Shown: positions 15,505 to 50,659, counted from the stretch's first letter. The stretch: DNA of 64,000 nucleotides from Escherichia coli (GCF_024223415.1 NZ_CP100500.1); one strand, 5' to 3'. Notes: generated by a model from the sequence alone, not told the origin. Numbers and translations are program-made.

Positions 15505-15677
15505 TTGCCGGAAAAGCAGGCACCTGCCGTCTGAACGGTATCGATCCGGAAGCGTATCTGCGCCATATTCTGAGCATACTGCCGGAATGGCCCTCCAACC
15601 GTGTTGACGAACTCCTGCCATGGAACGTAGTTCTCACCAATAAATAAGCGTCAATACGGTGCTCCGTTGACGCTTAC
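15505..15677 (+). mobile_element. IS66-family 3' remnant: last ~45 codons of the transposase plus terminal inverted repeat ending ...CGCTTAC
   Basis: Translates ...LNGIDPEAYLRHILSILPEWPSNRVDELLPWNVVLTNK*, similar to the C-terminus of the intact copy at 29821..31356; inverted partner at 45289. Confidence 0.75.
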
Positions 15678-15877
15678 TTTAATCCGTTTTCTGAGCTTAG
15701 ATTTTTCTGTTCCTACCCAGACCGTGGATTTGGAATTCATTTTTTGTCAGGTCAATGCTAATCGTTAAAACGGCCATAACGCACCTCCACTGGAAGGTTT
15801 ATCAGTAATATCCTACCGTTGCTTCATGGTCGGGGCGTCCATTCCATTATTATCGGTTTTCCTTTCTGTTTATAAAT

Positions 15878-15905
15878 GAAAACGCCAGCTGTATTCAGGC
15901 TGGCG
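15878..15905 (-). terminator. Hairpin downstream of yeeW (possible terminator)
   Basis: cgccagctgtattcaggctggcg with a short A/T run. Confidence 0.4.
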
Positions 15906-16061
15906 TCAGGGGAAATGAAGCCTGTTGAGTGAGATTCACCGGTTCTGGTGCAGAAGCTGCAGATGGCGCAGGGTAAGGACATCTTCTCTTGCCTGCTTAA
16001 TACAGGACAACAGTGCTGTTTCTGTGGTTAATGGCACTATACCCTGCATCACTGCATTGTC

Positions 16062-16256
16062 TTACAGCAACTGGTGAGGGCTGGCATAAGTTGCCGGTGT
16101 TTCGGTAGAGTCACGGTCATCCACCACGCGGAGTGAATAACCTTTTTCAGCGGCCTTATTAATCAGTTCAGTGATATTAACACCATCAATGTCAACGGCA
16201 ATGTGCCCCATATCCAGCGCCTGTACGTTAACGCTGTCGGCTTCCAGTGTCATCAT
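16062..16256 (-). CDS. yeeW: Small prophage protein YeeW
   Basis: 64-aa ORF directly downstream of cbtA; start overlaps cbtA stop. Confidence 0.7.
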   Translation of the reverse strand: MMTLEADSVNVQALDMGHIAVDIDGVNITELINKAAEKGYSLRVVDDRDSTETPATYASPHQLL

Positions 16257-16626
16257 TTCGCCTCCGGATACTTACCCAGGGTAATGTTATTTACCGTTCT
16301 GTAATTGTCGCGGGTCATCAGGCCGGTCGCCCTGCGAGCCCGGAGGATATCGATGCTGTTTATTAACTGAGAGCGGGTACAGGCGCTGAATCCCGGCTGG
16401 TCGGTAGCACCAGCGCGTATTTTTCCACGAGAAAGTTCACCGCATCACACAGTGAAATGCCTGCCTCAATATGCTGCTCAATCACACGTTCATCGGCAAA
16501 AGGTGTGTCATTCAGTGTGAGGCCATAGTGCTGGTCCAGCAGTCGGGACAGCAGTATCTGCCAGATTTCAACAGGAGACGGGCGAGAACTGGTCGCCTGC
16601 CCGGGTAATACAGGTAATGTTTTCAT
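16253..16626 (-). pseudogene. cbtA: CbtA (YeeV) type IV toxin gene with a frameshift after codon ~80
   Basis: ORF 16363..16626 gives [36 protein letters not shown]...EKYALV then [14 protein letters not shown]; the +1 frame continues [50 protein letters not shown]. Confidence 0.8.
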
Positions 16627-16714
16627 ACTGAAGATTTTCCTGATATGCAGATATAAAAATGGAAAAGTGGCGTGGTGAAAACACCAGGCCGTAGCAGAAG
16701 GCTATTCTGGAGAG

Positions 16715-17083
16715 TTAATTTTTCATTTCGGGCGTCGGATAAACAGCCAGATAAACGTAACCACAACTGCTGAGGGTATCGGCTTTGCAGGTCAGCCCTT
16801 TTGCATACAGCGTGACGGTATGCTGATGGCGGGGATTCAGTTCACCGCTGGTGAGCATGAGTTCCAGTTGTTTCATCAGCAGCGGAAAGGCCTGGTCCAG
16901 GTGGTACGCATCTGCATCGCTGAACAGGCCTCTGATACCGGCGCGGTCGGCAAGGTAATGCAACCGGTTACCCTCCTGCACCAGACGTGCCCCGAAACAG
17001 GGCGTCACGGTGCAGGGCAGCCCCCACCAGGGGCGGTCGTGATTGTCGTCGGGAAGTGTTGTCCCGGGGAGTGTGTCTGACAC
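16715..17083 (-). CDS. cbeA: Antitoxin CbeA (YeeU)
   Basis: 122-aa ORF MSDTLPGTTLPDDNHDRPWWGLPCTVTPCFGARLVQEGNRLHYLADRAG... Confidence 0.9.
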   Translation of the reverse strand: MSDTLPGTTLPDDNHDRPWWGLPCTVTPCFGARLVQEGNRLHYLADRAGIRGLFSDADAYHLDQAFPLLMKQLELMLTSGELNPRHQHTVTLYAKGLTCKADTLSSCGYVYLAVYPTPEMKN

Positions 17084-17156
17084 GATAAAATCCTTACAGA
17101 AAATCGGCTAAGAATGGTCCGGTAGTGGCGATAATTCTGCTCATCAGAATTCCCAC

Positions 17157-17378
17157 TCAGTTCAGGGTGACGCTCATCAGCCGGACATACGGACCAAAAC
17201 TGTCCTTACGGCGTTCAGCAAACACGGCCAGCACACCGGGAATATCCTGCACTTCACGACCGGTATACGCTTCAGCACTGCCGTGCCAGCGGTATTTACC
17301 GGTACAGAACGGAAAAAGACGGGATGTCGGATGTTGTTGGTGAATACGCATGGCTTCACCACGGGTGATAATTTTCAT
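17157..17378 (-). CDS. yeeT: Prophage protein YeeT (DUF987)
   Basis: 73-aa ORF MKIITRGEAMRIHQQHPTSRLFPFCTGKYRWHGSAEAYTGREV... Confidence 0.88.
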   Translation of the reverse strand: MKIITRGEAMRIHQQHPTSRLFPFCTGKYRWHGSAEAYTGREVQDIPGVLAVFAERRKDSFGPYVRLMSVTLN

Positions 17379-17440
17379 AATGGGATACCTCTGAAGACAG
17401 AAGATAAAAGTGAAAACAGGTGTGATGTGGTTGTGAAGGG

Positions 17441-17917
17441 TTAAAGCAGACCATGTTCGGCAAAGGAGAAAACCTGGTTGCCACCGACTATCAGATGGTC
17501 CGGCACCCGGATATCCACCAGGCCCAGTGCCTGTACCAGACGTTCCGTGATAAGGCGGTCTGCCTTACTGGGTGTGACTTCACCGGAGGGGTGATTGTGT
17601 GCCAGCACCACGGCAGCGGCATTGTGGTACAGGGCGCGTTTAATCACTTCCCGGGGATGGACTTCCGTGCGGTTGATGGTGCCGGTAAAGAGGGTTTCAC
17701 CGGCAATCAGTTGATTCTGGTTATTCAGATACAGCACCCGGAATTCTTCACGCTCCAGTCCCGCCATGTTCAGAATCAGCCATTCCCGTGCTGCACGGGT
17801 GGAGGTGAAGGCCACGCCGGGTTCATGAAGATGGCGGTCCAGGGTTTTCAGGGCCCGTTGAATGAGGCTGCGCTCGCCGGGCGTCATCTCTCCGGGCAGA
17901 AAGGAAAGTTGTTGCAT
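17441..17917 (-). CDS. yeeS: RadC-like JAB-domain protein YeeS
   Basis: 158-aa ORF (possible start at MTPGER, 17887); HNHPSGEVTPSKAD JAMM-type motif. Confidence 0.88.
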   Translation of the reverse strand: MQQLSFLPGEMTPGERSLIQRALKTLDRHLHEPGVAFTSTRAAREWLILNMAGLEREEFRVLYLNNQNQLIAGETLFTGTINRTEVHPREVIKRALYHNAAAVVLAHNHPSGEVTPSKADRLITERLVQALGLVDIRVPDHLIVGGNQVFSFAEHGLL

Positions 17918-17932
17918 TGTGCTTCTCTCAAT

Positions 17933-18412
17933 TCAGTCGATGATGCGCATAATGGCGCTGCATTCCGGATGCTGCAGGGCGTAATCCCGCAACCGGTAAT
18001 AATGGACCGTCATGGCATAATTCTCCGTACGACAGGCATGATGACTGTACGTCATCAGACAGGCGGCAATACCGGCGGCTTCCGGGCTCATTTCTGCGCG
18101 GTTACCGTTCATGGCATTGAACAGTACCCATGTTTCGTCATCATCGTCATCCGGTTCGGGTGCCATAAATGCCCCGCCGTTGTTCAGGGTGTACAGATTC
18201 CAGATACCACCGCAGTAGTCTTCGCACAGACGGTCCATCCAGCCGAAGACACGGGGCTCCAGGGTCACCCACTGTGGAATGAGGCCAAAATGCTGCGGCC
18301 AGAAGCTGATGCGCTGTTCATCAGGGACGAGGCTGGCAACCAACTGAGGCGGATTATTCTCTGGTGTTGTAGCTGAATAAATTGTGGGGGTATTCTGAGA
18401 AACGGTTTTCAT
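17933..18412 (-). CDS. Antirestriction protein (KlcA/ArdB/YfjX-like)
   Basis: 159-aa ORF with acidic stretch EPDDDDDETW; sits upstream of radC in the position yfjX occupies in CP4-57. Confidence 0.6.
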   Translation of the reverse strand: MKTVSQNTPTIYSATTPENNPPQLVASLVPDEQRISFWPQHFGLIPQWVTLEPRVFGWMDRLCEDYCGGIWNLYTLNNGGAFMAPEPDDDDDETWVLFNAMNGNRAEMSPEAAGIAACLMTYSHHACRTENYAMTVHYYRLRDYALQHPECSAIMRIID

Positions 18413-18493
18413 GAGATAACTCCTTAAATAACAAATAAATGTGTGTTTTTCAGGAACGAAAGCTGAATGATTCCCTCACTCAGGGAAACGGCA

Positions 18494-19315
18494 TCAGCGC
18501 AGGCTCTCCAGCATCGTTTCTGCCATCACCCACAATGCGCGATTGAGCTTAATGTCGGTATCAATGCTGTGAATGGCCCGGGTATGGATACGTTTTCCTT
18601 TTGCACTGCGACCGGAAATCCCGCCTTTCAGCATATTCTCCTGGATGGTCTGATATGCGCTCCACAGGTCCTTACCGTAATCCTCCCGGCGTCGCGGCGT
18701 CAGAATGTCGGCGGTGGTGACGGGCTGATGTTCGTCACCATAACGGTAAGTCAGTGCCGCCTGTGCCAGCGCCTGGCGTGCCGGTGGCGGCAGGACCAGC
18801 GACTGCATGGCATCACGCTTCTCCTCTATCCGGTCAAACACGCCCACCACCTCGTAAGCCCCTTCAATGACTCTGTCCACCACATTTCCCCGGTGCGGAA
18901 CACGCACTTCCCCCAGAGACTGACCACAGACGCAGCCGTTCTGGCAGACGAACCTGAAGTAACCCGGCAGCATCTGGTAGCTGGAGGTACCGTCATGAGA
19001 GTTGAGCAGAATAATTTCAGGGACATGTTCTCCGTTTATCTCTCCGGCCCGCCGCAGACGCAGCATGTGTTTGGTATATTCCCGGCGGCTCTGGTCGCGC
19101 ACACGGGTCTGGCAGGCGAAGAACGGCTGAAAGCCTTCCCGCTGCAGATTTTCCAGGACGGTAATGGTGGGAATGTACGCATACCGTTCACTGCGGGAGG
19201 TGTGCCGGTCTTCCCCAAAAATACTGGGTACATGGCGTATCAGTTCTTCATGTGTCAGCGGACGGTCACGGCGTATCTGGTTTGCAGCATAACCAAAACG
19301 ACTGGCTAATCGCAT
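18494..19315 (-). CDS. DUF932-family protein (YfjQ/YafZ-like)
   Basis: 273-aa ORF; position and size match the DUF932 gene of CP4-type elements. Confidence 0.6.
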   Translation of the reverse strand: MRLASRFGYAANQIRRDRPLTHEELIRHVPSIFGEDRHTSRSERYAYIPTITVLENLQREGFQPFFACQTRVRDQSRREYTKHMLRLRRAGEINGEHVPEIILLNSHDGTSSYQMLPGYFRFVCQNGCVCGQSLGEVRVPHRGNVVDRVIEGAYEVVGVFDRIEEKRDAMQSLVLPPPARQALAQAALTYRYGDEHQPVTTADILTPRRREDYGKDLWSAYQTIQENMLKGGISGRSAKGKRIHTRAIHSIDTDIKLNRALWVMAETMLESLR

Positions 19316-19535
19316 ACTTTGCTCCTTATCGGTGGTTAAGATTTACTGGTGCAATAAATGAAAAAAGCCGCGTCTCCCGGAGAAGACGCGGCCTGACGGG
19401 TGAAATGAATAAGGTTTATTGTCTGAGAGGCCTTTCACTGGCGAGCCACGCATTAAGCGGCTTTCCGGTAACAATGGCTGGGGCTGTATTTACCTTTGAT
19501 ATTAATAATGTGCAGAGAAACGCATGGTTTACTCC

Positions 19536-19946
19536 TTAGATTTTAAGTTTGTCCTGGGCTACAACGACAGGTTTTCCGGATGTGTCGATGACTCCTACCG
19601 TCGGTACGCCATTTTTGATTTCGAAGAACGGTTTGTTGCTACCTGAGCACAGTTGATTGTCCCCGTATTCAATCATTTGTGCTTTCCCGGTTTTCAGGTT
19701 AACTACCGAGACAGTGTAGTCGTAGCACCAGGCACCACCACGTTCAAGCACGAAAACATAGCTGTTATCTTTATAGTTGAACTGATTCTTTGTCTGGCAA
19801 TTCATACCGTCAATTTCGGTACAGGAAAACGCTTCTGTAGTATTAACGTATTTGATGTTATTTGGCAGTTTTACTTGTTTCGCAGTAGCGAAGACAGAGA
19901 ACAGAATAGTTACAGCAACGAGTAAAGTTTTGATAAAAGTTTTCAT
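19536..19946 (-). CDS. Small secreted protein of unknown function (four Cys)
   Basis: 136-aa ORF with signal peptide MKTFIKTLLVAVTILFSVFATA; AT-rich; SD present. Confidence 0.6.
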   Translation of the reverse strand: MKTFIKTLLVAVTILFSVFATAKQVKLPNNIKYVNTTEAFSCTEIDGMNCQTKNQFNYKDNSYVFVLERGGAWCYDYTVSVVNLKTGKAQMIEYGDNQLCSGSNKPFFEIKNGVPTVGVIDTSGKPVVVAQDKLKI

Positions 19947-19961
19947 GATAGACTCCTTAAA

Positions 19962-20450
19962 TTAGTTAAACGCAGCTACGTAGTTTTTCACCAGATACGC
20001 GAATTCATGCACGCCAATTTCACCGAACCAAACCAGGTAGGCCGGGTCATCTAAACCAAAGTAACGGTAGCCAACAACTTCATGGGTTTTTGGGTTATAG
20101 AGTGTTACGATAAAGTCCCAGCCGCAGGTATTGGCTTTGCAACCGTCGCCCTGGAGCCAGACTGTATCGTTAATGTTTACTGGCGTGATACCTCCACCAG
20201 GGCCATCCATATAGCCGCCTTTACCGAACATGCCGCTCAGTCCGACCGGTTTTAATGCTTTGTCGATAGCGGCTTTGTAGGTAGCGTCACCTTCGTACAA
20301 CTCGTACGTTGATGGACACGCTCCAGGTTGTTCAGCCCAGGCTTCCGGGTTACAACTAAGTGCTTGTTTTACGGTAGCCGCTTCTGCGTTAAAGTTAAAG
20401 CCCGTGAACAGAACCGCCAGAAATAACATAAGGGTATGTAAACGTTTCAT
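19962..20450 (-). CDS. Secreted/periplasmic protein of unknown function
   Basis: Signal peptide MKRLHTLMLFLAVLFTGFNFNAEA with GGAAG SD; ORF track extends in frame to 20753 (263 aa) with a second upstream Met at 20645. Confidence 0.55.
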   Translation of the reverse strand: MKRLHTLMLFLAVLFTGFNFNAEAATVKQALSCNPEAWAEQPGACPSTYELYEGDATYKAAIDKALKPVGLSGMFGKGGYMDGPGGGITPVNINDTVWLQGDGCKANTCGWDFIVTLYNPKTHEVVGYRYFGLDDPAYLVWFGEIGVHEFAYLVKNYVAAFN

Positions 20451-20780
20451 TGTAAATATTCTTCCGTTGTAAATGGCGCTGGAAAATTTCTCATCAGTGA
20501 AACCTTCCGGAAGTTTCCCCCCCTTGTATGATGTATATCGCCAGTATTTTATTTCATCCCGGCTGTAATTTTTATATTCCCCGGCACGTGCAATAACGCT
20601 GACCAGAGATATAAGGCTCATTAATAACTTTACAGGTAATTTCATAATTAAATTTCCAGTGAGTGAATTGACAGGTGAGGGGTAAAACTTTCTCTCAGGT
20701 AATATATATCTGAAAATATTTTCAATAACACCAGACAGGAAAAACACCACCACAGGCGGTGGCGTTTCTTTGGGGCGTCT

Positions 20781-21851
20781 TTATTTAATCCGGGCCATCG
20801 CGTTTCTCAGTGCCAAATCTGCCTCTTCCGTTATATCCAGGCTTTTCTGCAATACCGCCTCTGACCGGGTCAGTGCCTGACGTGCTGCCAAGGGGTTCCG
20901 GATATGCTCCATCGTCAGCATCGTGTCTTCATAGCCCTGCTGACGCCAGATGTCGGTATGTGCCGATGTAAAACTGAGCAGACCGCCACTTTTGCCTTCT
21001 TCCCCTGTGTGTTTCAGCCTTTTCCGGGGACGGATTTCAAGGATTGTGGTGTCCGGAAAAGCCCGGCGATCCCATAAAGAACCGTCACTCAGATGCGTCA
21101 CAATCACCATATTGCATCCGGCATCGACCAGAGGCGTTACAGGGGTATTTCCCTGCATATTTCGCCATCCTCCCATCCCACCATCACCGAACATTGTCCC
21201 CTGAACCTCACGGGGATGGAACAACAGGGGCAGTGCGGCTGACGCAAGCAGAGCCTCTTTCTGCTGTCCGCGGGGCAGACTCTGGATATGCTGAAAAACG
21301 GCGTTTTTCGTGGTTCCGGCACCCAGTTCAGCACGAATGCAGTCAATAATATCCTGCATGCCCCCTTCTGTGGGGTACAGCGACACATACAGCGGTAGCC
21401 CGTCTGCCAGAGCATCAGTATCAAGATAATGATCCATCAGCGCTGTCAGAGGCTCATCTGACAACAGCGGCTGAGCCATCGGATTGTCGAAGCCGTTGAT
21501 TATCGATATATGGCGAAGAAGTATCGTAAGCAGTGCTCCTGCACGTCCGGGGATCTGGCAGAGGTTCATTGCCTGGAACAATTTTTTCAGCAATGAAAAG
21601 TAAACCGATCGGTTTACCGACAGCACCTGATTATTCCCCAGATGATCCCAGAGCGCCTCCAGGCGTACGGCAGCTTCTGACAGATCGGGAGAGGCCGCGA
21701 TAATGGCACCATTGAATGCGCCAATGCTGGCCCCTGAAACCATGCTGATCTGTGTACCACACTCTGCCAGTGCCTTAACCACTCCCGCCTGATAAGCGCC
21801 CACCGCCCCGCCACCGGACAGCACCAGCCCCGTTTTCATTTCTGTACTCAT
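20781..21851 (-). CDS. Patatin-like phospholipase
   Basis: 356 aa; oxyanion-hole motif LSGGGAVGAYQAG, GxSxG nucleophile elbow (GASIGA), DGG motif (FGDGGMGG); ATG overlaps stop of upstream gene. Confidence 0.8.
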   Translation of the reverse strand: MSTEMKTGLVLSGGGAVGAYQAGVVKALAECGTQISMVSGASIGAFNGAIIAASPDLSEAAVRLEALWDHLGNNQVLSVNRSVYFSLLKKLFQAMNLCQIPGRAGALLTILLRHISIINGFDNPMAQPLLSDEPLTALMDHYLDTDALADGLPLYVSLYPTEGGMQDIIDCIRAELGAGTTKNAVFQHIQSLPRGQQKEALLASAALPLLFHPREVQGTMFGDGGMGGWRNMQGNTPVTPLVDAGCNMVIVTHLSDGSLWDRRAFPDTTILEIRPRKRLKHTGEEGKSGGLLSFTSAHTDIWRQQGYEDTMLTMEHIRNPLAARQALTRSEAVLQKSLDITEEADLALRNAMARIK

Positions 21852-22753
21852 GCAGCCCCCTTCTGAAATATTTCATCGACCATACTTTCAGAGAGGCGTT
21901 CTGCAGAGCAGAGGCGAGGCATGCGAACCGGTAAGTGTTCTGCAGCCTGCGTGGTTGACCAGATCACCGGATGCTGCTCTTCACTGCACCAGTCTCCCAG
22001 CCAGTTAATCGCGTCATGCCACTCGTTATCTGCCTGCTCCCGGCCCTGACCACCAAGCCAGTCCAGAGTGTTCAGACGCACGGTTGCACTACCGCCACTC
22101 TCCTGTGCCATCTGCGTTAATGCTTTATGTCTGAGAATATCCAGTAGCTGGTTAACCTGGCCTGTTTCGCTCTGACGTATCACATCACCAAACGCGCCCC
22201 AGCGAAGCTCTTCAAGTGCCACATAACAACGTCCGGCAGGGGAAAATGACGCATATCGCCCGGCGCTCCACCATGAGAATATCTGCTCAAGATGTAACTG
22301 CGCCCGCTGAACCTGGTCAACACGGTGGAGTTTTTCTTCAAGATGATTCAGTTTATGGTGAACCTGATCGGCCAGGGTGAGTAACTGCTCCCGCGTATCT
22401 GCGGAATAATGCGCCAGCCTGGCTGTATCACTGACCAGTGAACTGACCCTGTCGTTTACCCGGGTAATCGCGTAGTTTGTGGTGGCAAGTGACGTTGTCA
22501 TCTCCGTCAGCCAGCGCAGGGACGCCTCAACGCCCTGTGCAAGCGACGCATTGATGGCATTCTGCCGTGCAGCGCCTTCGCCGGTCAGCCCCTCTTTTAA
22601 ACGCCGGAAGAACGTGCGCTCTCCGGCCGTGCGGATATGCTCCTGTGCAACATCGATTCCGTTTGCGAAATCAACCACAAATTTTTCAGGAAGACAGGTG
22701 AGTACCTGACATACCCGGTTATCAGCAATTTGTTGAATAAATGGTGAAGTCAC
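21848..22753 (-). CDS. Hypothetical 301-aa helical protein, middle gene of the GTPase-patatin operon
   Basis: No P-loop; likely GTG start overlapping the GTPase stop (GTGA) and stop overlapping patatin start (ATGA). Confidence 0.6.
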   Translation of the reverse strand: MTSPFIQQIADNRVCQVLTCLPEKFVVDFANGIDVAQEHIRTAGERTFFRRLKEGLTGEGAARQNAINASLAQGVEASLRWLTEMTTSLATTNYAITRVNDRVSSLVSDTARLAHYSADTREQLLTLADQVHHKLNHLEEKLHRVDQVQRAQLHLEQIFSWWSAGRYASFSPAGRCYVALEELRWGAFGDVIRQSETGQVNQLLDILRHKALTQMAQESGGSATVRLNTLDWLGGQGREQADNEWHDAINWLGDWCSEEQHPVIWSTTQAAEHLPVRMPRLCSAERLSESMVDEIFQKGAA

Positions 22754-25146: not shown

Positions 25147-25207
25147 TATTTAACCTTCCTAAGACGCATTTTCATGACAACCACGGAGGAGGTCATTTAC
25201 TACAAAC

Positions 25208-25242
25208 GATCGTTTATAACGATCGATATGATAGTAACGATC
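25208..25242. promoter_or_regulatory. Cluster of three GATC (Dam) sites within repeated AACGATCG motifs in the leader of the GTPase operon
   Basis: aaacGATCgtttataacGATCgatatgatagtaacGATCgatac; GATC at 25208, 25221, 25239. Confidence 0.5.
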
Positions 25243-25363
25243 GATACATTCTATTAACTTGAGAAACACAACGCAAGGGGACAACCCGGGTATGGCTGCG
25301 TTTGCATAGTGTTTTCATGGAGTTAAAAATCTGTAACAACAGCCTGGTACATCACCACCGGGT

Positions 25364-26241: not shown

Positions 26242-26324
26242 ACATGTATTCCCGGTGAAAAAAGACAAAACCCCGCGCACCGGAAAGGTGGCGGGGGATT
26301 CACGGAAATAATATCTGTCTGAAA

Positions 26325-35382: not shown

Positions 35383-35460
35383 GGGGGATAACAGGCAGCA
35401 GAGCGCCGCCGGCAGGCCGGAGATTGCGTCTGCTGTGGGCGAAGGGTTAGTGGTTAAAAA

Positions 35461-36792: not shown

Positions 36793-36996
36793 TCACCAGC
36801 TACACAGTATATACACACTGACGCTGACAGTAGTCAGCAGGACCACAATAATCAGTGCCAGCAGTATGGTAACGATACGGTCTGTATTCCGGTAATAGCC
36901 GAAGGGGTCGACAGAACCACAATACGGGCAACACACTGTATTATGAGTAATCGCGTTTCCACAGTCCCTGCACTTCTTTTTGCGTATCACCATCAC
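36793..36996 (-). CDS. Small zinc-ribbon membrane protein (CxxC...CxxC then one TM helix)
   Basis: 67-aa ORF KKKCRDCGNAITHNTVCCPYCGSVDPF ... IVTILLALIIVVLLTTVSVSVYILCSW. Confidence 0.4.
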   Translation of the reverse strand: MMVIRKKKCRDCGNAITHNTVCCPYCGSVDPFGYYRNTDRIVTILLALIIVVLLTTVSVSVYILCSW

Positions 36997-37192
36997 TCCC
37001 TCCTCACAGCCTTACCCGTAACCGGTTTTTTACATTAAAAAAACAACGCTGAAAATTCAACCGTCAGTCCGGAGACGACCGTTCGGGTTATCACAGAGTG
37101 CCTGAGACAGTGTCCTGCCGGAGGTCACTTCAGGGACTCTGCGCATTTTTTACGACGTGGCTATTCCGTATGAACCATACGGAGATTTAACC

Positions 37193-37762
37193 ATGACCTA
37201 CAAATACAACCCCTTCTGGCAGCAACGTATTCGTGAGACGGTGCGGCACGCACTGAATGTTCATCCCCGCCTGACGGCATTGCGGGTTGACCTGCGTTTC
37301 CCGGATGTACCGGCAGCAACGGACGCAGCTGTGATATCCCGCTTCATCAATGCCCTGAAAGCCCGAATCGACGCTTACCAGAAACGTAAGCATCGGGAAG
37401 GTAAACGCGTGCATCCCACCACCCTGCATTACGTCTGGGCCCGGGAGTTTGGGGAGTGCAAAGGTAAAAAACACTATCACCTGATGCTGCTGGTTAACCG
37501 GGATACCTGGTGTCGTGCCGGTGATTACCGTGCTCCGGGATCACTGGCCGGGATGATTAAACAGGCGTGGTGCAGTGCCCTGGGAGTGGATGTCGGGTGC
37601 CATGCCACGCTGGTGCATTTTCCGGCCTGGCCGGCGGTGTGGCTGGAACGCGATGATGACACTGGCTTTCAGCAGGTGCTGGAACGTGCTGACTATCTGG
37701 CGAAGGAACATACCAAAGCTCACTGCACCGGTGAGCGCAATTTTGGCTGTAGCCGGAGTTGA
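37193..37762 (+). CDS. Hypothetical island protein, possibly YagK/YfjJ (inovirus Gp2-like) family
   Basis: ORF 37157..37762; SD ggaga precedes ATG 37193 (MTYKYNPFWQQRIRETV...). Confidence 0.45.
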   Translation: MTYKYNPFWQQRIRETVRHALNVHPRLTALRVDLRFPDVPAATDAAVISRFINALKARIDAYQKRKHREGKRVHPTTLHYVWAREFGECKGKKHYHLMLLVNRDTWCRAGDYRAPGSLAGMIKQAWCSALGVDVGCHATLVHFPAWPAVWLERDDDTGFQQVLERADYLAKEHTKAHCTGERNFGCSRS

Positions 37763-38015
37763 GCACGACTGGCGCGCCAATATCCGGCAAACCAAAAGTA
37801 TGGGTTGTTGTCTGGCGGCAACGATGTATCCACTCGCCCACTGACTGTTTTTTACGTCAGTGTTCCATTGTGTGACAACCACAGTGCTGTAACAGCAACC
37901 AGCCTGCTTTACCCAAACTCCAGTCCAGATTTTAACTGAACCGCCATTCACACCCTGACCACGCTGCCCGTACCGGGACGGCTGTTGCCTGCGTGTCGTC
38001 TGGCGGCTGAGGAAT

Positions 38016-38423
38016 ATGACTATGTACGCAAAATCCTTTATCGCTCTTGATGGCAACGGACGTCTGACGGGCGCCCGTACTGCACAGGCCGCACCTTATG
38101 CTAACTACACCTGCCACTTGTGTGGCAGTGCACTCAGATACCATCCGCAATACGACACTGAACTTCCCTGGTTTGAACACACTGACGACAGGCTGACAGA
38201 GCACGGTCAACAGTGCCCTTATGTCAGGCCGGAGCGCAGAGAAATACAGTTGATTAAACGTCTGCAGCAATTCGTACCGGATGCCTTACCCGTGGTGCGT
38301 AAAGCCAGCTGGCACTGCAGACAATGTCACCACGATTATTATGGGGAGCGGTACTGCACACACTGCCAGACCGGAGGATTCAGTATTCCCCGGACAACTC
38401 AGGAGGAAATATGCGAATTCTGA
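38016..38423 (+). CDS. Cys-rich zinc-ribbon protein, paralog A (unknown function)
   Basis: 135 aa with CHLCG...PWFEH...CRQCHHDYYGERYCTHCQTGG. Confidence 0.5.
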   Translation: MTMYAKSFIALDGNGRLTGARTAQAAPYANYTCHLCGSALRYHPQYDTELPWFEHTDDRLTEHGQQCPYVRPERREIQLIKRLQQFVPDALPVVRKASWHCRQCHHDYYGERYCTHCQTGGFSIPRTTQEEICEF

Positions 38424-38821
38424 ACTGTTATATGGCGAATGACAGCAAAGGCCATTTTGTTACGGCGAAAGAAGCAGCGAAGCACAACCGCCAGGACGTT
38501 TTGTGCTGTGTGTCCTGTGGATGCCCGTTAACACTTCAGCGGGGCAATGACGGACAACCACCGTGGTTTGAACATGACCAGATGACTGTCGCTGAGAAAA
38601 TCCTGCTGCGATGCACCTGGCTTGACCCGGCAGAGAAAGAGGCCCGTCGTTTGCATCTGCAGGGTATGACGGTTCCGGATTATACGGTGAAGGTGAGAAA
38701 GTGGTTTTGTGTGATGTGTGACGAAGATTATGAAGGAGAAAAGTGCTGCCCGCGTTGTGGTACCGGGGTATACAGCAGGGAGGGGGGGCTGCAGGAAGGC
38801 AACTGGAAGGATAGGAACTGA
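38411..38821 (+). CDS. Cys-rich zinc-ribbon protein, paralog B (unknown function)
   Basis: ORF 38324..38821; perfect SD aggagg before ATG 38411 (MRILNCYMAND...); CCVSCGC...PWFEH...CVMCDEDYEGEKCCPRCGTG mirrors paralog A. Confidence 0.5.
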   Translation: MRILNCYMANDSKGHFVTAKEAAKHNRQDVLCCVSCGCPLTLQRGNDGQPPWFEHDQMTVAEKILLRCTWLDPAEKEARRLHLQGMTVPDYTVKVRKWFCVMCDEDYEGEKCCPRCGTGVYSREGGLQEGNWKDRN

Positions 38822-39006
38822 GCGGTTCAGTCGCGGAAATCAGTTGCAGAGCTGTAATGATATCTCCGGGAGTGCTGCGTTGGTAGGGGCATCCCGGGAT
38901 AGAGAAATTTTAGCACTTTGCCCTGAATGATTGTAGACGTTCCGAGTACTCGTACCGGTCTGAGTTATTACAGTTAGATATTCACTTTTTCTCCCGCATA
39001 CTTCAC

Positions 39007-40790
39007 ATCTGTCAACGACGGATGAAAAGTGGTTCTTCCGCAACCTGGGTGGAAGAAAATGGATGAAACTTTCTGGCGAACAAGGATCTAAGCTGTTTTA
39101 AGTTATGGGCAACGCAATGCACTCTCTTAAGACACTTCTACAGTTACCTTGCGGATGGCGATGCAGTCGACAAATTATTAGCTCTGACGGTATAACCCTC
39201 CATCTCCACGGAAAACGCAAAACAGCACAATGTCCTGAATGCTTTAAGCGTAGCGACTCTGTTCATAGTTGTCGTCGGCGCCGGATACAGCATCTACCCT
39301 GCTCAGGGCAGACGCTATGGCTTGTATTTTCCGTCCGCCACTGGTACTGCCGTAACCCGGCTTGTTCACGTAAAATTTTTGCCGAGTCGCTTGCTCCCTT
39401 CGCCGGTTCACACCAGCAGTCTTCACAGGCGTTACAAAATTTACAACGTCAACTGGGATTAATAGCTGGAGGTGAGGCTGGAAAACGGGCTGCAACGGCA
39501 GCGGGTCTCCGTTGCAGTGCTGATACTCTTCTTCGCAGGGTATCAATACCCCGGAGACGAAACAGTCAGGCGCGCCTCATGTCGGTATTGATGAGTGGGC
39601 GTGGCATCGGGGCCACTGCTGCGGTATGTTAATAGTCAATCTTGATACTCACCGTCCCCTCGTCCTGCTTCCCGGCCGTGATCAGCGTACGCTGGCGACC
39701 TGGTTCAGAAAATATCCGGAAATACAGGTTGTCTCGCGTGATCGCAGTGGAGTCTATGCGACAGCAGCACGTGAAGGTGCACCTCAGGCCAGACAGGTGG
39801 CCGATCGATGGCACCTGCTAAAAAATATTGGTGATGAGCCTGAACGAATGATGTACAGACATATGCCTCTGATACGTCTTGTTGTCAGAGAGTTATCACT
39901 GAAGAAATCACCTGAGCCAGAAATATCTGTGCCTGTAGCATCGCTCCGTCGTCTGGAACGCCTTAAACAGCACATCCGCAAAAAACGGCATCAGCGTTGG
40001 ACAGAGGTTATGGCCCTGCATAACAAGGGATGTAGTTTCAGGGAAATATCCCGTATTACAGGCCTGTCGCGAGTGACAGTCAGTCGCTGGGTGGGTTCAG
40101 GAACATTCCCTGAAATGTCAACTAGGCCTCCAAAGCGAGGGCTTCTGGACCCATGGAGGGAGTGGTTAAAAGAGCAACGAGAATGTGGTAATTATAACTC
40201 CGGCCGGATATGGCGGGAAATGGTGGCCAGGGGGGTTACAGGCAGTGAAACCATCGTCAGGGATGCTGTTGCCAAATGGCGTAAAGGCTGGATCCCACCG
40301 GTTACTACTGCCGCAAGACTTCCTTCAGTGTCCCGGGTAAGCCGCTGGTTGATGCCCTGGAGAATAATCAGGGGTGAAGAAAATTATGCTTTCCGATTTA
40401 TTAGTCTGATGTGTGAAAAAGAACCGGAGTTGAAAATAGCGCAGCAACTGGTACTCGAGTTCTACCGTATTCTGAAAACCTAAAATAAATCACAGCTAAG
40501 CAGCTGGTTCACTCGGGTCCACGAAAGCGGCTCAGCAGAACTTCGGTGCGTAGCTGCGGGGATGGAAGCTGATGCTGCGGCTATATGTGAGGCAATCAGC
40601 AGTCGCTGGAGTACTGGTGTTGTCGAAGGTCATGTAAATCGCCTGAAGGTGCTGATACGCCAGATGTATGGTCGAGCCGGACTTGAACTACTTAGGCGGA
40701 GGGTAATGAGTCCACTGGCATGAAAATCTTCACCCAGGTTGCGGAAGAGCCACTTTTGCACTGTTCGTGACAGTATGGCCTTTATGTACT
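39007..40790 (+). mobile_element. ISL3-family-like insertion sequence with a frameshifted transposase; ends approximate
   Basis: Imperfect terminal inverted repeats containing GG(T/C)TCTTCCGCAACCTGGGTG at 39031 and (reverse) 40751; transposase split into frames 39105..39632, 39626..40483 and a C-terminal piece ending ...EGHVNRLKVLIRQMYGRAGLELLRRRVM (~40722). Confidence 0.5.
39105..40483 (+). pseudogene. Disrupted ISL3-like transposase (at least two frameshifts)
   Basis: Zinc-finger N-terminus (CPECFKRSDSVHSCRRRRIQHLPCSGQ), ADRWHLLKN segment and HTH-like segment lie in different frames. Confidence 0.5.
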
Positions 40791-40793
40791 CAC

Positions 40794-41095
40794 TTTGTTA
40801 CCGGTAGCTGGATCATCACTACCGTGCTGCAAATGGTGGTGAACAGCATCAATTGTGGAATGAATGTTGCCGAAGCGACCAATGCGCCTCGTTTCCACTA
40901 TCAGTGGTTGCCGGACGAGCTGCGTGTTGAAAAGGGTTTAGTCCGGATACGCTCAAGCTGCTGGATGCAAAAGGTCAGAAAGTGGCGCTGAATGAGGCGA
41001 TGGGCAGCACGCAAAGCATTATGGTTGGGTCGGATGGTGAGTTGTACGGCGCATCCGACTCGCGCTTGGTGGATGATTTAACGGCGGGGTATTAA
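40794..41095 (+). pseudogene. ggt: 3' remnant of a gamma-glutamyltranspeptidase gene with an internal frameshift
   Basis: Translates ...VTGSWIITTVLQMVVNSINCGMNVAEATNAPRFHYQWLPDELRVEKG then, after a frameshift, SPDTLKLLDAKGQKVALNEAMGSTQSIMVGSDGELYGASDSRLVDDLTAGY*. Confidence 0.7.
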
Positions 41096-41134
41096 TTGAC
41101 ATCCCCCGGCGCAATGTGCCGGGGGATAATGGTT

Positions 41135-42169
41135 TTATGCGGTCAATAATCGTCCGGGATTATCGATACAGAGTTTTTTGAGGATCGTTTTATCGACGCC
41201 GCGCTCCGCCAGATAGGCCAGAAAAACATCTGGAACAAATCCCCAGCCATTACCGCCATTTTTAGCCCACATTTGTTTAAGGAAGACATCGTGGCTGAGA
41301 ACAAGCTGATCGGCGTATCCCAACTCAATGAGATGAGCGACGGCATCGGCAGTCTCCTGCACCCCTGGCGCTATTCCCTCTTTCGGGAAGGTAATGTCTA
41401 GGCCAATCATGTCGAATTCCAGCCAGACACCTTTATCAAGCATTTTCCGCTGATACGCCACGTCTTTTCCTGACGGATCCGAGTGTGCGAGAGAGACTTT
41501 ATTTGGCGAGACGCCCATTTCACCTAACACAATGTCGAGTACTTCATCACCGCGACGAAGCCAGCCCGGCATGTGAATATTCATCGCCACATGAGGATTG
41601 TTAATCTGTGCCAGCGAGGCAGCCCGCAAGCTGTTATGCTCGGCTTCGGTAAATGTCGGTGAAACACCTATTTCACCGATCATTCCGGCACGAATATCCG
41701 TATCGCCAATCCCTTGATTCAATTCTTTATCGATCGTTGTCGCCAGTTCATCAACCGTTTTATGAATTCTCTGGCTTTCAAATTTTTCCAGGTAGGGACC
41801 GGAGGAAGCAACAATATTCAGACCTGTTTTTAATGCGACTTCTCGTAATGCCTGCGCATCTCGTCCGATAGACTCAGACCCTGTGGCATCAATAATGGTG
41901 CGACCACCGAGCGAGATAAAGTTATTGATTTCGAAGATCACATCTTCAATAGGTTTGCGGTCCATATTATCAGCGCAGCAATAAGGATCGTGTTTTAATG
42001 CCCACTGGATTTCTGCCGTGACTTTTTTATCAACAAGCCGTTGTGAAAAAGGATAGCAAGGAGCATCCACAACAGAGGAAAGATCGTTGAACAGATGTTC
42101 ATGAGGAAGTGTTAGCCCCATATCTTCACGGGCGACGGGGCCCGTCACAGTTTGTAGATAATCTTTCAT
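41135..42169 (-). CDS. Phosphotriesterase-family (PTE/PHP-like) metal-dependent hydrolase
   Basis: 344 aa; N-terminal GLTLPHEHL metal-binding signature. Confidence 0.7.
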   Translation of the reverse strand: MKDYLQTVTGPVAREDMGLTLPHEHLFNDLSSVVDAPCYPFSQRLVDKKVTAEIQWALKHDPYCCADNMDRKPIEDVIFEINNFISLGGRTIIDATGSESIGRDAQALREVALKTGLNIVASSGPYLEKFESQRIHKTVDELATTIDKELNQGIGDTDIRAGMIGEIGVSPTFTEAEHNSLRAASLAQINNPHVAMNIHMPGWLRRGDEVLDIVLGEMGVSPNKVSLAHSDPSGKDVAYQRKMLDKGVWLEFDMIGLDITFPKEGIAPGVQETADAVAHLIELGYADQLVLSHDVFLKQMWAKNGGNGWGFVPDVFLAYLAERGVDKTILKKLCIDNPGRLLTA

Positions 42170-42171
42170 GA

Positions 42172-43137
42172 TTATACCTCCATTTTCTTCATTGTTTTCG
42201 AGGTTCTGTATTCCGGAATAGTGGTAACAATTGCACCGACCAGTGCAAACAGTGTTCCGATGATCGTGACCAGATAAACGCTATTGCCCAGCGATGGAAT
42301 TAATACGTCAATCAATACTGATCCCAGTAACTGGCCCGCCGTTGAAGCAACCCCCAGCATCAGTAACCCCAGACCTCTGACCAAAATGGCCATTAAACCG
42401 ATAGACATTAGTCCAAGCGGGCCGCCAAGATACATCCACCAGACATCTGGTAATTGAACAGTGACGTGCCCTAATGCGACACGAATAGCAAGCGCTGTGC
42501 CTAAAACACAAAATCCAACGATGAAATTCTAGGTGATTGAAACCAGCATGGATCCCGTAGCTTCAGCTACTTTTGCATTTCCAGCGGGCTGCCATCCTGC
42601 AAGCAAACCAGCTAAGAACGGAAGAATGGCAAGTAAGATGAAAGAGGTAGAATGCCACTGAGGTGACACAACAAAAATCGTAGCAATAACCGCAAATAAT
42701 GCACCGATGATGCAATAAGGGGTAAAGTATTTTTTCTCGTCGACACCGATACCAAAGCGATCGCAAAGTAAACCAGACAGCAATAGCGCGGAGATCAGTG
42801 CGGTTTGAAACGTTGCGACCCCGAGTGCGCTGGCTGATGCGCCTTCAGAAAATACCACCATCGCTCCACAGAGACCGGCAAACCAGTTCCAGAGAGGAAC
42901 TTTTCGGTTTTTAATCAGAGAAGGAATTGCCGCAAATTGTTGCCGGGTTTCTTTTCGCGCCATAATAATAAAAAACATCACGACTAAACCACTGGCAAAG
43001 GAGATAACTGCGCATGCATTACCATCCTGTAACCAGTGACCTAATTGACCATTCACCGCTGATTGCATAGGGGAGAGCATACCCGCAAGAATCGTGGCAA
43101 GCATCCATAAGGGAGTTGAGTACTTATTCTTTTTCAT
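42172..43137 (-). pseudogene. Inner-membrane transporter gene interrupted by one in-frame amber codon (TAG at 42529-42531)
   Basis: ORFs 42529..43137 and 42172..42435 share a frame; membrane-like sequence continues straight across the TAG (...LVSIT*NFIVGFCVLGTALAIRVALGHVTVQLPDVWWMYLGGPLGLM...). Confidence 0.7.
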
Positions 43138-43193
43138 ACATCAATCCTTCTATTATAGTAAATGGAGTAACTGGAGTTACCCCATTATTATTA

Positions 43194-43952
43194 TTATCTT
43201 GCAATATGAGTCAGTATATTTACCCACAACGCGGTATAGAACGGCCAGGACATAAACTGCTGTGTACCCCAGTGCGGTGAACAGTCACTCATAAAGCAGG
43301 CTATTTTCCCGTTGTGATAGTTACCAAAGACCAGTAATGGAGCGTTGTTTATTGTTAATACCACCTCAGCATTTTCTTTAGCGATCGCCCGGTTATAACC
43401 TAGGAAAAAAGGATATTCAGAGAACCCTTTAATAACTGGATGTTCAGGTTGTGATGGCTGTGCAATAACACCCTCTGGTTTTTCGACACGATCGTCACCA
43501 TCTAACATCGTAACCGGGAGCACATCAGCCAGAACTGTATTTTTATAATTGGCTTTTGCTTCAATTCCCATGAATGAGAGATAGCCGCCAATCATCAATA
43601 ACCCACCACCGTTATTCACATATTCTTTAATCAGTTCGAGAGCGTTTGGTTTTATGCGAAGCTGATAAAAAGTATCATTTTGTAGCAGGAAAGTATTACT
43701 ACCAATATCACTAATAACGATGGCATCATATTGTTCTAACTGTGCCACATCTTCAGGGAAGGCAATTTGTACCGTATGTGCTGGCATATAGGTGACATCT
43801 ACCTGACTATTTTTCAGACACTGGAGTAACCAGGTCGCACCTTCTTCATATTTACTTGAGGTAAAACTGTCATATCCTTTTGAATGAATCATATGAATAT
43901 GCCAGGATTCCCCAATAAAGAGCACTTTTAGTGATTTTTTGGTGTTATTCAT
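43194..43952 (-). CDS. Class-I glutamine amidotransferase-like/ThuA-like domain protein
   Basis: 252-aa ORF; fold assignment by weak recollection only. Confidence 0.4.
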   Translation of the reverse strand: MNNTKKSLKVLFIGESWHIHMIHSKGYDSFTSSKYEEGATWLLQCLKNSQVDVTYMPAHTVQIAFPEDVAQLEQYDAIVISDIGSNTFLLQNDTFYQLRIKPNALELIKEYVNNGGGLLMIGGYLSFMGIEAKANYKNTVLADVLPVTMLDGDDRVEKPEGVIAQPSQPEHPVIKGFSEYPFFLGYNRAIAKENAEVVLTINNAPLLVFGNYHNGKIACFMSDCSPHWGTQQFMSWPFYTALWVNILTHIAR

Positions 43953-43965
43953 TCTCTGTCCCTTC

Positions 43966-45180
43966 TTAATGCGTAAAAATAGTTTGCTGATAATGTATAC
44001 TCTGAATTCGATGTATCACAGATTCATGTTCAGGCATGTCGGAAGCATTGCTTGTCTCCACCGCTAGGGATGCAAAGGCGCTGGCATAACACAGTGCTGA
44101 TTCCAGTGATTTTCCTTTCGCAAGTCCTGATGCCAGAGAGCCGTTAAACGCATCCCCGGCTCCTGCCGTATTTTTAACGACCGCTGGAAACGCTGGCGAA
44201 TGAATGAATTTTTTGCCATCAAATGCGAGCGAGCCCTTGCTACCGAGCGTGATAACCGTGTTTTTTACCCCTTTATTGTGGATAGCTTCTGCAGCTCGTT
44301 TAGCTGATTCAAGATCGTGTACGTCTATGCCGGACAGTAAACCAGCTTCTGTTTCATTGGGGGTGATATAATCAACATCCTGAATAAGTTCGTTGACGAT
44401 ATCATTATAGGGTGCCGGGTTAATAATGACCGGGATACTGTTTTTTTGCGCCAATGTGATCGCTTGTTGCAGAGCGGTATAATTTGTTTCGAGCTGCAGA
44501 AGTATGACATCAGAATTAATAATCGCTTCTTTCTGAATAGTTATTTCATCGGACGACATTGTCATGTTGGCACCGGGATAGATCGCAATAACATTATCGC
44601 CAGTACCTTCATTAACAAGGATCGTGGCAGTTCCGGTTTGCGTTTCTTTCGTTTGATAAATTATACTTTTATAAATCTTAGACGAATTCATAAAGTTGAT
44701 CGCATAATCACTAAAGTGATCTGTACCTACTTTTGTTATGAAATAAACATCAGTATCGGCAAAGCTTGCTGCCAGCGCCTGGTTACAGCCTTTTCCCCCC
44801 GGTGAAAATATAAAATTACTTGCCAGAAGCGATTCTCCGATAGTGGGAAGCCTCGGCAAATAACTGATGATATCAACATTAAACGAACCAATAACGCATA
44901 CTTGACTTTTCATAGTTGAGTGGCCTTTTTTTATTCCCTGGGCTGTATCATAATTTTCAAGCGCATAAGCGATTTCATTTTTCGCAATAGTATCAAGCGA
45001 GTCTAGGACGATAAAAGCACCGCCATGACATCGAGTCAGATAGCCAAGCCTGGCAAGTTCATTAAGATCTGAACGAATAGTTTCTTTCGTTACATTGAGG
45101 CTATTGGACAGATCGGATACTTTTACAGAACCGAATTTACTGAGTCGTTTCAATATTTCATGATGGCGTTCAAATTTCAT
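43966..45180 (-). CDS. DeoR-type HTH regulator fused to a PfkB/ribokinase-family sugar kinase
   Basis: 404 aa; N-terminal DeoR HTH (MKFERHHEILKRLSKFGSVKVSDLSNSLNVTKETIRSDLNELARLGYL); C-terminal PfkB signature DTAGAGDAFNG. Confidence 0.7.
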   Translation of the reverse strand: MKFERHHEILKRLSKFGSVKVSDLSNSLNVTKETIRSDLNELARLGYLTRCHGGAFIVLDSLDTIAKNEIAYALENYDTAQGIKKGHSTMKSQVCVIGSFNVDIISYLPRLPTIGESLLASNFIFSPGGKGCNQALAASFADTDVYFITKVGTDHFSDYAINFMNSSKIYKSIIYQTKETQTGTATILVNEGTGDNVIAIYPGANMTMSSDEITIQKEAIINSDVILLQLETNYTALQQAITLAQKNSIPVIINPAPYNDIVNELIQDVDYITPNETEAGLLSGIDVHDLESAKRAAEAIHNKGVKNTVITLGSKGSLAFDGKKFIHSPAFPAVVKNTAGAGDAFNGSLASGLAKGKSLESALCYASAFASLAVETSNASDMPEHESVIHRIQSIHYQQTIFTH

Positions 45181-45288
45181 GCTTCACCTCACTTCAGTTA
45201 CGTTAATATCTATCGATGTATATTGATGTGATAATCACCATAAAGTGGCGGGGAAAAGCAAAAAAAAGCAAAAATAGCCTGAGAAAAG

Positions 45289-45700
45289 GTAAGCGTTAAT
45301 GGAGAATCATATTGATGCTTATTTATTGGTGAGAACTACGTTCCATGGCAGGAGTTCATCAATACGGTTGGAAGGTTATTCCGGCAGTACGCTCAGGATA
45401 TGGCGCAGATACGCTTCCGGATCAATGTCGTTCAGAAGGCAAGTGCCGATAAGCCCATACAACAGTGCACTGCGCTCGCCGCCGAAGAACATAAAGTTTT
45501 TATTTCCGAGACAGATGGCACAAAGGGCTTTTTCCGCGGCATTATGTCTGCCTCCGCCTGACCGTCAACACTGTAATAACAGAGTGCGCCCCACTGATTC
45601 AGTACACAGCTGAACCATTCTCCCAGTCTGGATTTTTGGATAGCGTGGCATTTTTCTCCACCATGCATGCAGTGAGTCCAGTAACAGTTTGCTCTTCTTC
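45289..45700 (-). mobile_element. Degraded IS66-family 3' remnant (terminal IR GTAAGCG at 45289, decayed tnpC 3' region), inverted copy of the 15505-15677 fragment
   Basis: Reverse complement of 45289-45430 aligns base-for-base with 15541-15677 (about 90 percent identity by eye); ORF fragments 45432..45791 and 45565..45840 retain ...LNQWGAL... like tnpC. Confidence 0.7.
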
Positions 45701-50654: not shown

Positions 50655-50659
50655 GAATT

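Follow-up and report, generated by a model that had tools for sequence, protein, structure and literature searches.

The islands CP4-44, CP4-6 and CP4-57 of Escherichia coli share a hallmark block of genes that runs from DUF932 to DUF4942, and the same block is found in the segment described here, which is part of a window of 64,000 nucleotides from an E. coli chromosome (NZ_CP100500.1; positions are counted from the first letter of the window). Different from those islands, however, this one has neither an integrase nor a tRNA site, its edges are formed by remnants of a pduV and a cbi gene (pduV' and cbi'), and its cargo is a dynamin-like trio and a rikA module in place of flu. The chromosomal site, with pduV' and cbi' flanking the island, is the same as that of the pdu/cob polymorphism of enteric bacteria, and the loss of cbi and pdu in E. 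coli was reportedly treated by Lawrence and Roth in 1996; our finding, however, concerns IS relics in the island that replaces the pdu/cob genes and not these genes themselves. In the K-12 cryptic prophage CP4-44, the interval between yoeF/pduV' and yeeW holds yoeD (b4642), which is recorded as a pseudogene (PMC5526668). The left one of two IS66-family relics in our island is the same object, namely the same 159-nt IS66 3' end in a block that is 99% identical to K-12, without any material difference. The surroundings do differ, as K-12 has flu and yeeR in the interior, yoeA, IS2 and IS5 on the right side, and no right relic. For both relics the nearest intact relative is ISEc23, an IS66-family element of about 2.5 kb with the gene order tnpA-tnpB-tnpC and an 8-bp target duplication. 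They share its GTAAGCG/CGCTTAC termini and the C-terminus of its TnpC, but hold only its last 159 and about 435 nt, respectively, the right one being 83-88% identical and full of frameshifts.

The site between tmaR (yeeX) and cobU has three states in E. coli: it holds the pdu operon, holds a CP4-44-type island, or is empty. Strain A26 retains the series from pduV through pduA, pduF, pocR and cbi' to cobU. In the window this operon has left a 3' fragment of pduV (15265..15446, minus strand; part of the K-12 ORF yoeF and labelled EutP/PduV family protein in RefSeq), which aligns with the full-length pduV of A26 until about 15446 and diverges thereafter. Fused to it is a 72-nt piece (15447..15518, minus strand) of the N-terminal coding part of the island-terminal DUF4942 gene. 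Strain E4 has this gene intact, at an identity of about 77% to the piece, and in EH09-18-41 and PRO_A-1462 the piece is present as well and continues for another 112 nt, reaching the start codon. On the other side, a 3' fragment of a residual cbi gene upstream of cobU (46935..47079, plus strand) marks the right edge of the replaced region. It is preceded by IS debris consisting of K-12 yoeG and an IS4-family fragment (45956..46934), which is 99.8% identical to K-12 and common to most island-bearing E. coli, the match in most genomes beginning at 45956; it is missing from A26, where homology resumes at 46935, and is hence still accessory in comparison with strains that carry pdu. In the one allele with an empty site that was inspected, 15438 is joined to 47043 at 3-4 nt of microhomology, outside the two relics. 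Measured against one pdu-carrying and one empty-site strain, the accessory DNA begins at about 15447 and ends at 46934/47042, thus exceeding the left relic by 72 nt and the right one by about 1.2-1.3 kb. The true left edge of the island is the DUF4942 piece fused to pduV', and both edges are deletion junctions. The statement in the earlier note that everything accessory at this locus lies within or next to the two relics is thus only roughly correct, and the relics do not sit at the edges.

The island body (15849..39008) is of the CP4-44 type, is 99.95% identical to the annotated strain Combat11I9 and shows partial synteny with CP4-44 of K-12, with 99% identity over 12196-17893. It carries a DUF957 remnant, yeeW, a frameshifted cbtA, cbeA, yeeT, yeeS, an antirestriction gene and DUF932, further the patatin/RdcB-like/dynamin-like trio and a yeeP-like GTPase pseudogene, and finally an HTH gene, an inovirus Gp2-like gene and zinc-ribbon genes. 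The conserved block of CP4-44 (DUF932, antirestriction, yeeS(RadC), yeeT, cbeA, cbtA, yeeW, DUF957, DUF4942) is therefore present, with the DUF4942 and DUF957 genes truncated, and the annotation shows no P4-type integrase or tRNA attachment site between tmaR and cobU.

The two relics form a gap-free inverted repeat of 15519-15680 (plus strand) with 45286-45447 (minus strand), with 143 identities in 162 nt (88.3%), among them identical runs of 41 and 26 nt. The similarity is not due to chance, since the comparison of the arms by BLAST gave an E-value of 1.3e-55 in a search within the window. Both CGCTTAC termini point inward to an interior of 29,611 bp (15678-45288), the left relic ending with ...GACGCTTAC at 15677 and the right one beginning with GTAAGCG at 45289 on the minus strand. 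Such an inward-facing pair of IS66 3' ends, about 90% identical by eye, had been proposed in the earlier note, and the alignment bears this out, as it does the decayed state of the right copy, which can be aligned with ISEc23 as far as about 45715-45731. The left fragment had been given as 173 bp from 15505; its end at 15677 stands, but its start and length do not, as it spans 159 nt from 15519, and 15505-15518 is non-IS66 sequence that continues in other strains.

Both relics are genuine 3' ends of the IS66 family, homologous far past the terminal repeat, and they are fragments of members of this family, not elements: tnpA, tnpB, the catalytic core of tnpC and the left end are all missing, and the terminus that survives in either relic is the right-hand one only. 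Two intact IS66-family elements in the window served as live-copy control, each with GTAAGCG...CGCTTAC termini, an 8-bp duplication and three ORFs. Element A (tnpA, tnpB, tnpC; 28961..31397, plus strand) is flanked by the duplication CATTCTCT and its TnpC matches NF033517 with 462 bits; element B (31963..34404, minus strand) is flanked by GCCTGAAA and is 83% identical to A. The two elements and ISEc23 share their termini with both relics, yet apart from one stretch of 65% no nucleotide similarity was detected between the relics and the two intact elements in the window. On sequence grounds the relics belong to the ISEc23 branch and not to that of the intact elements.

The left relic (15519..15677, plus strand), which maps onto b4642, corresponds to ISEc23 nt 2374-2532, from the last 42 codons of tnpC through the untranslated 3' end to the right terminal repeat. 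It is identical to a plasmid-borne IS66 copy in 158 of 159 positions and to ISEc23 in 154. Its translation matches the Pfam domain DDE_Tnp_IS66_C (PF13817; E=6.7e-16) and is 86% identical to ISEc23 TnpC in tblastn, whereas the 42 residues gave no match in NCBIfam because the fragment falls beyond the model. Adjoining it, at 15678..15848 (minus strand), a decayed IS110-family element survives with its 5' end, and comparison with PRO_A-1462 identifies this element as the target of the left insertion. In that strain the order is tmaR, pduV'/DUF4942', the IS110 pseudogene and then the island without interruption, and the pseudogene runs uninterrupted across the insertion point (...GGGAACG|TTTAATCC...). 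The window has the 159-nt relic in place of 1,311 nt of PRO_A-1462, and homology between the two picks up exactly at 15678, the first base past the IS terminus. The comparison of these alleles shows that the IS110-family element, which sat just upstream of the island-terminal DUF4942 gene, was already in decay when an ISEc23-like element inserted into it. A later deletion, at which we see no clear microhomology, then took away nt 1-2373 of the IS66 copy together with most of the IS110 element and 112 nt of the DUF4942 fragment, and the 159 nt of K-12 yoeD are what was left.

The right relic (45289..45725, minus strand; about 435 nt) is the decayed 3' end of another copy, retaining TnpC residues 401-537 (E=3e-38, with a partial match to NF033517) and the right terminal repeat. 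Over 411 aligned nt it is 87.6% identical to ISEc23, with 51 substitutions, 8 indels and 2 in-frame stops; in the 159-nt comparison it scores 142/159, and of the 18 differences between the relics 15 are private to it. Among 72,556 plasmids its best intact relative is ISEc23 (83.5%), and no nearer intact relative was present in these plasmids or in 5,426 complete E. coli genomes. The few plasmid matches at 97-100% are captured copies of the relic itself, and a 23-nt exact pattern from it had no match in GTDB at one genome per species. It lies 108 nt upstream of rikA at the end of a module that begins with an ISL3-family pseudo-element (39009..40773, plus strand) with 43-nt terminal inverted repeats, whose transposase carries a frameshift and an internal stop according to RefSeq; the part of the module common to E4 begins at 39075, and the stretch that the window has in common with E4 and NCTC11129 stops at 45723, at the truncated outer edge of the relic. 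According to the annotation, there follow at 40803..45180 a ggt' fragment on the plus strand and then, on the minus strand, the rikA cluster (PMC13432705). Homologous to Salmonella STM3550-STM3547, the genes of this cluster encode a phosphotriesterase-like protein, a DMT transporter interrupted by an internal stop, a glutamine amidotransferase and the PfkB kinase RikA. The relic is truncated by the terminal remnant of an IS3-family (IS2-like) element (45742..45957), which is 82-88% identical to the end of IS2F and likewise to the IS2-like remnant adjoining yoeA in K-12; NCTC11129 and E4 have further IS3-family material at this position. These features suggest that the insertion 108 nt upstream of rikA was that of a much older IS66 relative and took place in the donor of the module with ggt' and the rikA cluster; this copy would have decayed as a pseudogene before an IS3-family insertion truncated it. 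The relic would then have spread in E. coli within the 6.6-kb module, most likely via recombination between related islands. This history is partly inferred and not shown, since the region upstream of rikA was not found in a pre-insertion state (with an uninterrupted ...CTTTTCTC... target).

Are the two relics then a pair? Their distribution argues otherwise. The left relic together with its flank is present in 3,217 of the 5,426 genomes and the left junction in 3,130, whereas the counts are about 1,906 for the 6.6-kb rikA module with the right relic and 767 for the right junction to the cobU backbone. K-12 and no fewer than 1,300 further genomes have the left relic but lack the right one. Conversely, E4 carries the right relic and the rikA module at 99% identity in a different island adjoining pao/ecp/ykg genes, with no left relic within roughly 80 kb to the left of the module; one plasmid carries part of the module (44976-45723), and neither relic was found in PRO_A-1462. 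All four states are thus represented, that is, left only (K-12), right with 6.6 kb elsewhere (E4), neither (PRO_A-1462) and both (the window), although co-occurrence is inferred from genome counts and from a few loci that were inspected. The earlier note had considered the bracket a possible footprint of IS-mediated rearrangement. Insertions followed by deletions are indeed evident, so the locus has been shaped by IS elements; the relics, however, occur independently in other E. coli, an outcome that the note itself had named as refuting its reading. We conclude, with a probability of roughly 90%, that they are two independent IS66-family insertions of very different age, that they are inert, and that the bracket is coincidental because they stem from separate insertion events. 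Eye-catching inverted IS ends around an island can thus come from two unrelated events.

We regard it as quite improbable that the relics are not wholly inert, be it through rare RecA-dependent flipping via the runs of 41 and 26 nt or through a promoter that drives rikA wherever the module lands. The rikA operon might, for instance, receive an outward promoter or some other regulatory signal from the right IS66 end, which would have been kept for this reason. The relic does contain a candidate promoter directed at rikA (45335-45306; TTCTCA, an 18-nt spacer and TATGAT), whose predicted -10 hexamer arises from substitutions private to this relic, and it stays with the rikA module in every genome and context sampled. 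Then again, the candidate matches the consensus at only 9 of 12 positions, the promoter scan returned 2 sites against a chance expectation of 1.0 +/- 0.9, and promoter and terminator scans of both relics were at chance level. Moreover, adjacent DNA is always expected to be linked, and the native upstream region of 108 nt could house the real promoter. We therefore consider a retained regulatory role very improbable.

Still less credible, in our opinion, and contradicted by the observations, is that the 29.6 kb arrived as a single unit between two inverted IS66 copies whose outer parts were later lost. The layout does resemble composites of the Tn5/Tn10 type, in which two inverted IS fragments surround a cargo, with the right-end termini proximal to it, and for both copies ISEc23 is a nearer relative than the other IS66 elements of the window. 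Different from such composites, however, the two copies differ in element and in age, and they have no outer ends, transposase or common duplication. They are 88% identical with a strongly asymmetric divergence, so that it is not the same IS on both sides: the left copy is 99% identical to a live plasmid copy, the right one 83-88% identical to the nearest intact IS. Where outer ends and a common duplication would be expected, there is a DUF4942 fragment on the left and an IS3-family remnant on the right. The left copy inserted into the IS110 pseudogene of an island that pre-existed without it, and the interior is itself a mosaic that varies among strains with the left relic. The independent inheritance described above, with the left relic in genomes lacking the right one and the right relic in another island with only 6.6 kb of cargo, is not that of one inherited unit.

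It is exceedingly doubtful, too, that the arms still drive RecA-dependent inversion of the island at a relevant rate. Such an inversion had been suggested in the earlier note, and the arms do offer 162 nt at 88% identity with two perfect runs. Shen and Huang are said to have put the minimum for RecA-dependent exchange, in 1986, at roughly 25 nt; runs of 41 and 26 nt are at or above this value, so that rare inversion in culture is conceivable despite the finished assemblies. Yet among the 5,426 genomes, of which several hundred to about 1,900 have both arms, not one matched a synthetic query for the predicted inversion junction at a coverage of at least 80%. Divergence of 12% and short length depress homologous recombination by orders of magnitude, which makes an inverted repeat of this kind at best a very poor recombination substrate, and the annotation of Combat11I9, which is 99.95% identical and has both arms, lists no invertase or integrase from tmaR to cobU. 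Nor can the relics transpose, because they lack a transposase, left ends and a second functional end. Deletion of the segment between the arms, the other outcome proposed, is ruled out by geometry, as simple homologous recombination between inverted repeats inverts and does not delete, and by the empty-site junction outside the relics.

With the bracket read as a coincidence of two independent insertions, one of which is already known and annotated as yoeD, the finding is one of ordinary IS debris and has little significance beyond good annotation. If the pair had turned out to form a true composite unit or an invertible segment, this would have added a new, if modest, case of a mechanism that is already known. 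What the finding does provide is a worked history of the tmaR-cobU locus in its three states, which may aid those who insert DNA at this locus or type CP4-44 variants. As for the remaining content of the region, a search of 14000-48000 against Rfam at gathering thresholds returned no matches, and in PADLOC the dynamin-like, RdcB-like and patatin genes gave weak matches only (about 1e-4). Element B in the interior is a recent insertion, because it is absent from the otherwise identical Combat11I9.

The sequence observation of two IS66 3' ends in inverted orientation is confirmed. Without gaps, 15519-15680 (plus strand) aligns with 45286-45447 (minus strand) at 143 of 162 nt (88.3%; BLAST E-value of 1.3e-55 in a search within the window), in agreement with the reverse-complement identity of about 90% given in the earlier note. 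The left arm terminates at 15677 with ...GACGCTTAC and the right arm, on the minus strand, starts at 45289 with GTAAGCG; both IS termini point into an interior of 29,611 bp, as had been described (~29.6 kb). The left fragment is indeed IS66-derived but shorter than the 173 bp first assigned to it, as it comprises 159 nt (15519-15677) and 15505-15518 is other sequence. Translated, it matches the C-terminus of an IS66-family TnpC over the final 42 codons (Pfam DDE_Tnp_IS66_C, E=6.7e-16), and the right relic (45289-~45725, minus strand) matches residues 401-537 of ISEc23 TnpC, with two in-frame stops and frameshifts. Each relic has one IS end only and lacks a transposase, and both are already known as annotated pseudogenes (K-12 yoeD; RefSeq "IS66 family transposase, incomplete"). 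The longest identical stretches between the arms are 41 nt and 26 nt, and 15 of 18 arm-arm differences are private to the right arm. Such private substitutions account for the -10 hexamer of a weak, outward promoter-like site in the right relic, which is an improbable candidate for a promoter. In the relics and their surroundings, promoter-like and terminator-like sites are as frequent as expected by chance, and a search of 14000-48000 against Rfam gave no match.

The two relics do not, however, form a pair. Among 5,426 E. coli genomes, with features counted at ≥80% coverage, the left relic with its inner flank is present in 3,217 and the left junction from tmaR to yeeW in 3,130, whereas the rikA module, a ~6.6-kb block that contains the right relic (present in 14 of 14 sampled rows for this module), is found in ~1,906 and the right junction into the cobU backbone in 767. 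The left relic therefore occurs without the right one in at least ~1,300 genomes. Both relics are found at the tmaR-cobU locus of strains UPEC69, ES4 and Combat11I9, K-12 has the left relic only and PRO_A-1462 has neither, an outcome that the earlier note had itself named as a refutation of the pairing.

What survives of the proposed IS-mediated footprint is that insertions and deletions have made the locus an IS graveyard; a reading of the relics as a bracket, as a composite unit or as an invertible repeat that is still active is unsupported. A query for the junction that inversion would create (the 162-nt arm flanked by 400 nt from the tmaR/pduV' side and 400 nt of reverse-complemented sequence from the rikA side) found it in none of the 5,426 genomes, and coverage never exceeded the 58% that the unrearranged left side would give. 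Given the identical runs, rare exchange between the arms in culture is conceivable, but finished genomes show no trace of it. Deletion through the repeat is forbidden by geometry, as inverted repeats are unable to delete the DNA between them, and the one empty-site allele examined, that of Eco_24-2013, formed elsewhere, joining 15438 to 47043 via 3-4 nt of microhomology.

The region corresponds to E. coli sbcB-dacD-sbmC-yeeA-tmaR(yeeX) ... cobUST, and its tmaR-cobU site exists in at least three allelic states: a full pdu operon with pocR and residual cbi, a CP4-44-type island, and empty. Strain A26 carries pduV through pduA, pduF, pocR, a residual cbi gene and cobU, and K-12 the cryptic prophage CP4-44. 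Homology of A26 to the window ends at ~15446 and restarts at 46935, and the accessory DNA of the window thus extends from ~15447 to 46934; neither relic sits at these edges. Fragments of pdu/cbi flank it at 15265-15446 and 46935-47079 (comparison loci L004/L008 and L002). The K-12 ORF yoeF is largely the pduV 3' fragment (pduV') with read-through into adjoining DNA, which shows that the lineages with an island go back to a state in which pdu was present. At 46837-46840 the window is uninterrupted where K-12 carries IS5H (insH6), the 4-bp overlap being consistent with an IS5 target duplication. Downstream of cobT/ldtA (50610-55035), several tRNA-Asn genes and their flanks cross-match in both orientations at 85-100%, and these repeats are longer and better matched than the IS66 relics.

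K-12 also carries the 159 nt of the left relic, at the equivalent position, as the annotated pseudogene yoeD (b4642; termed a pseudogene in PMC5526668). The relic is identical to a plasmid-borne IS66 copy at 158 of 159 positions and to ISEc23 at 154. Relic-free alleles are found in PRO_A-1462 and EH09-18-41, in the order tmaR, pduV', a fragment of the island's terminal gene, DUF4942 (~190 nt, terminating at the start codon), a decayed IS110-family element and the remaining island. The DUF4942 gene of strain E4 is intact and directly abuts DNA equivalent to 15849 onward, which identifies the IS110 element as inserted there. Compared with PRO_A-1462, the window has the 159-nt relic in place of 1,311 nt; homology breaks at 15518|15519 and restarts at 15678, the first base past the IS terminus, so that alignments fix both boundaries of the change. 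The order and mechanism of the deletion we infer: in the simplest history, an ISEc23-like element would have entered the IS110 pseudogene at ...GGGAACG^TTTAATCC..., and a single deletion would then have taken nt 1-2373 of the IS66 element together with the greater part of the IS110 element and 112 nt of the DUF4942 fragment.

The IS110-family remnant at 15678-15848 (also at L017 3072-4100 and, in EH09-18-41, at L003 12440-13684; "IS110 family RNA-guided transposase" in RefSeq) was inserted exactly at the DUF4942 start codon. The window retains its first ~21 codons (15678-15740) and 108 nt of the upstream end, which in live relatives would encode the guide (bridge) RNA. In EH09-18-41 (L003 8943-12426) it contains a nested IS629, itself split by a group II intron (ltrA), and mobile elements are thus nested three levels deep at the position of the left relic.

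The right relic differs from ISEc23 tnpC by 51 substitutions in 411 aligned nt, 8 indels (6 of them frame-shifting) and the two stops, and no intact relative closer than ISEc23 (83.5%) was found in the 5,426 genomes or in 72,556 plasmids. Its copies are 99-100% identical among E. coli strains, suggesting that it decayed for the most part before spreading within E. coli. An IS3-family (IS2-like) remnant (45742-45957) truncates its outer side, and rikA lies 108 nt downstream of its terminus. This gene opens a cluster whose other members code for a glutamine amidotransferase, a DMT transporter and a phosphotriesterase-like protein, with homologues in Salmonella STM3547-STM3550 (PMC13432705). At its far side the module is delimited by a ggt fragment together with an ISL3 pseudo-element. 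E4 has the block 39075-45723 at 99% identity (L014 12041-18694), in a different island beside pao, ecp and ykg genes and with no left relic in the ~80 kb fetched to its left, and 44976-45723 is also present on a conjugative IncF/IncI plasmid (L010 9776-10526). It follows that the right relic moves together with the rikA module. The ggt fragment is ~92% identical to native E. coli ggt, which suggests that the 6.6-kb block was picked up next to ggt in a related lineage of Escherichia; the cluster neighbours ggt in Salmonella LT2. The DMT transporter gene (42172-43137) has an internal stop in the window and is intact in NCTC11129 and E4; like the frameshifted toxin gene cbtA (16253-16626), whose antitoxin gene cbeA is intact, it is a pseudogene within an otherwise intact operon.

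The island also contains two intact IS66-family elements with GTAAGCG...CGCTTAC termini, at 28961-31397 (8-bp duplication CATTCTCT) and 31963-34404 (8-bp duplication GCCTGAAA), whose TnpC is only ~64% identical to that of ISEc23. They are inverted to each other, 565 bp apart and 83% identical. The second is the sole exception to the 99.95% identity between the window and Combat11I9 and, being absent there, is a recent transposition. In the place of K-12 flu-yeeR lies an operon-like trio (20781-25146, minus strand) whose genes encode a patatin-like phospholipase, an RdcB-family protein and a dynamin-family GTPase of 798 residues. The trio is a candidate module for membrane remodelling or defence, with weak PADLOC matches only (LeoBC, 8.6e-5; phospholipase effector, 8.4e-5).
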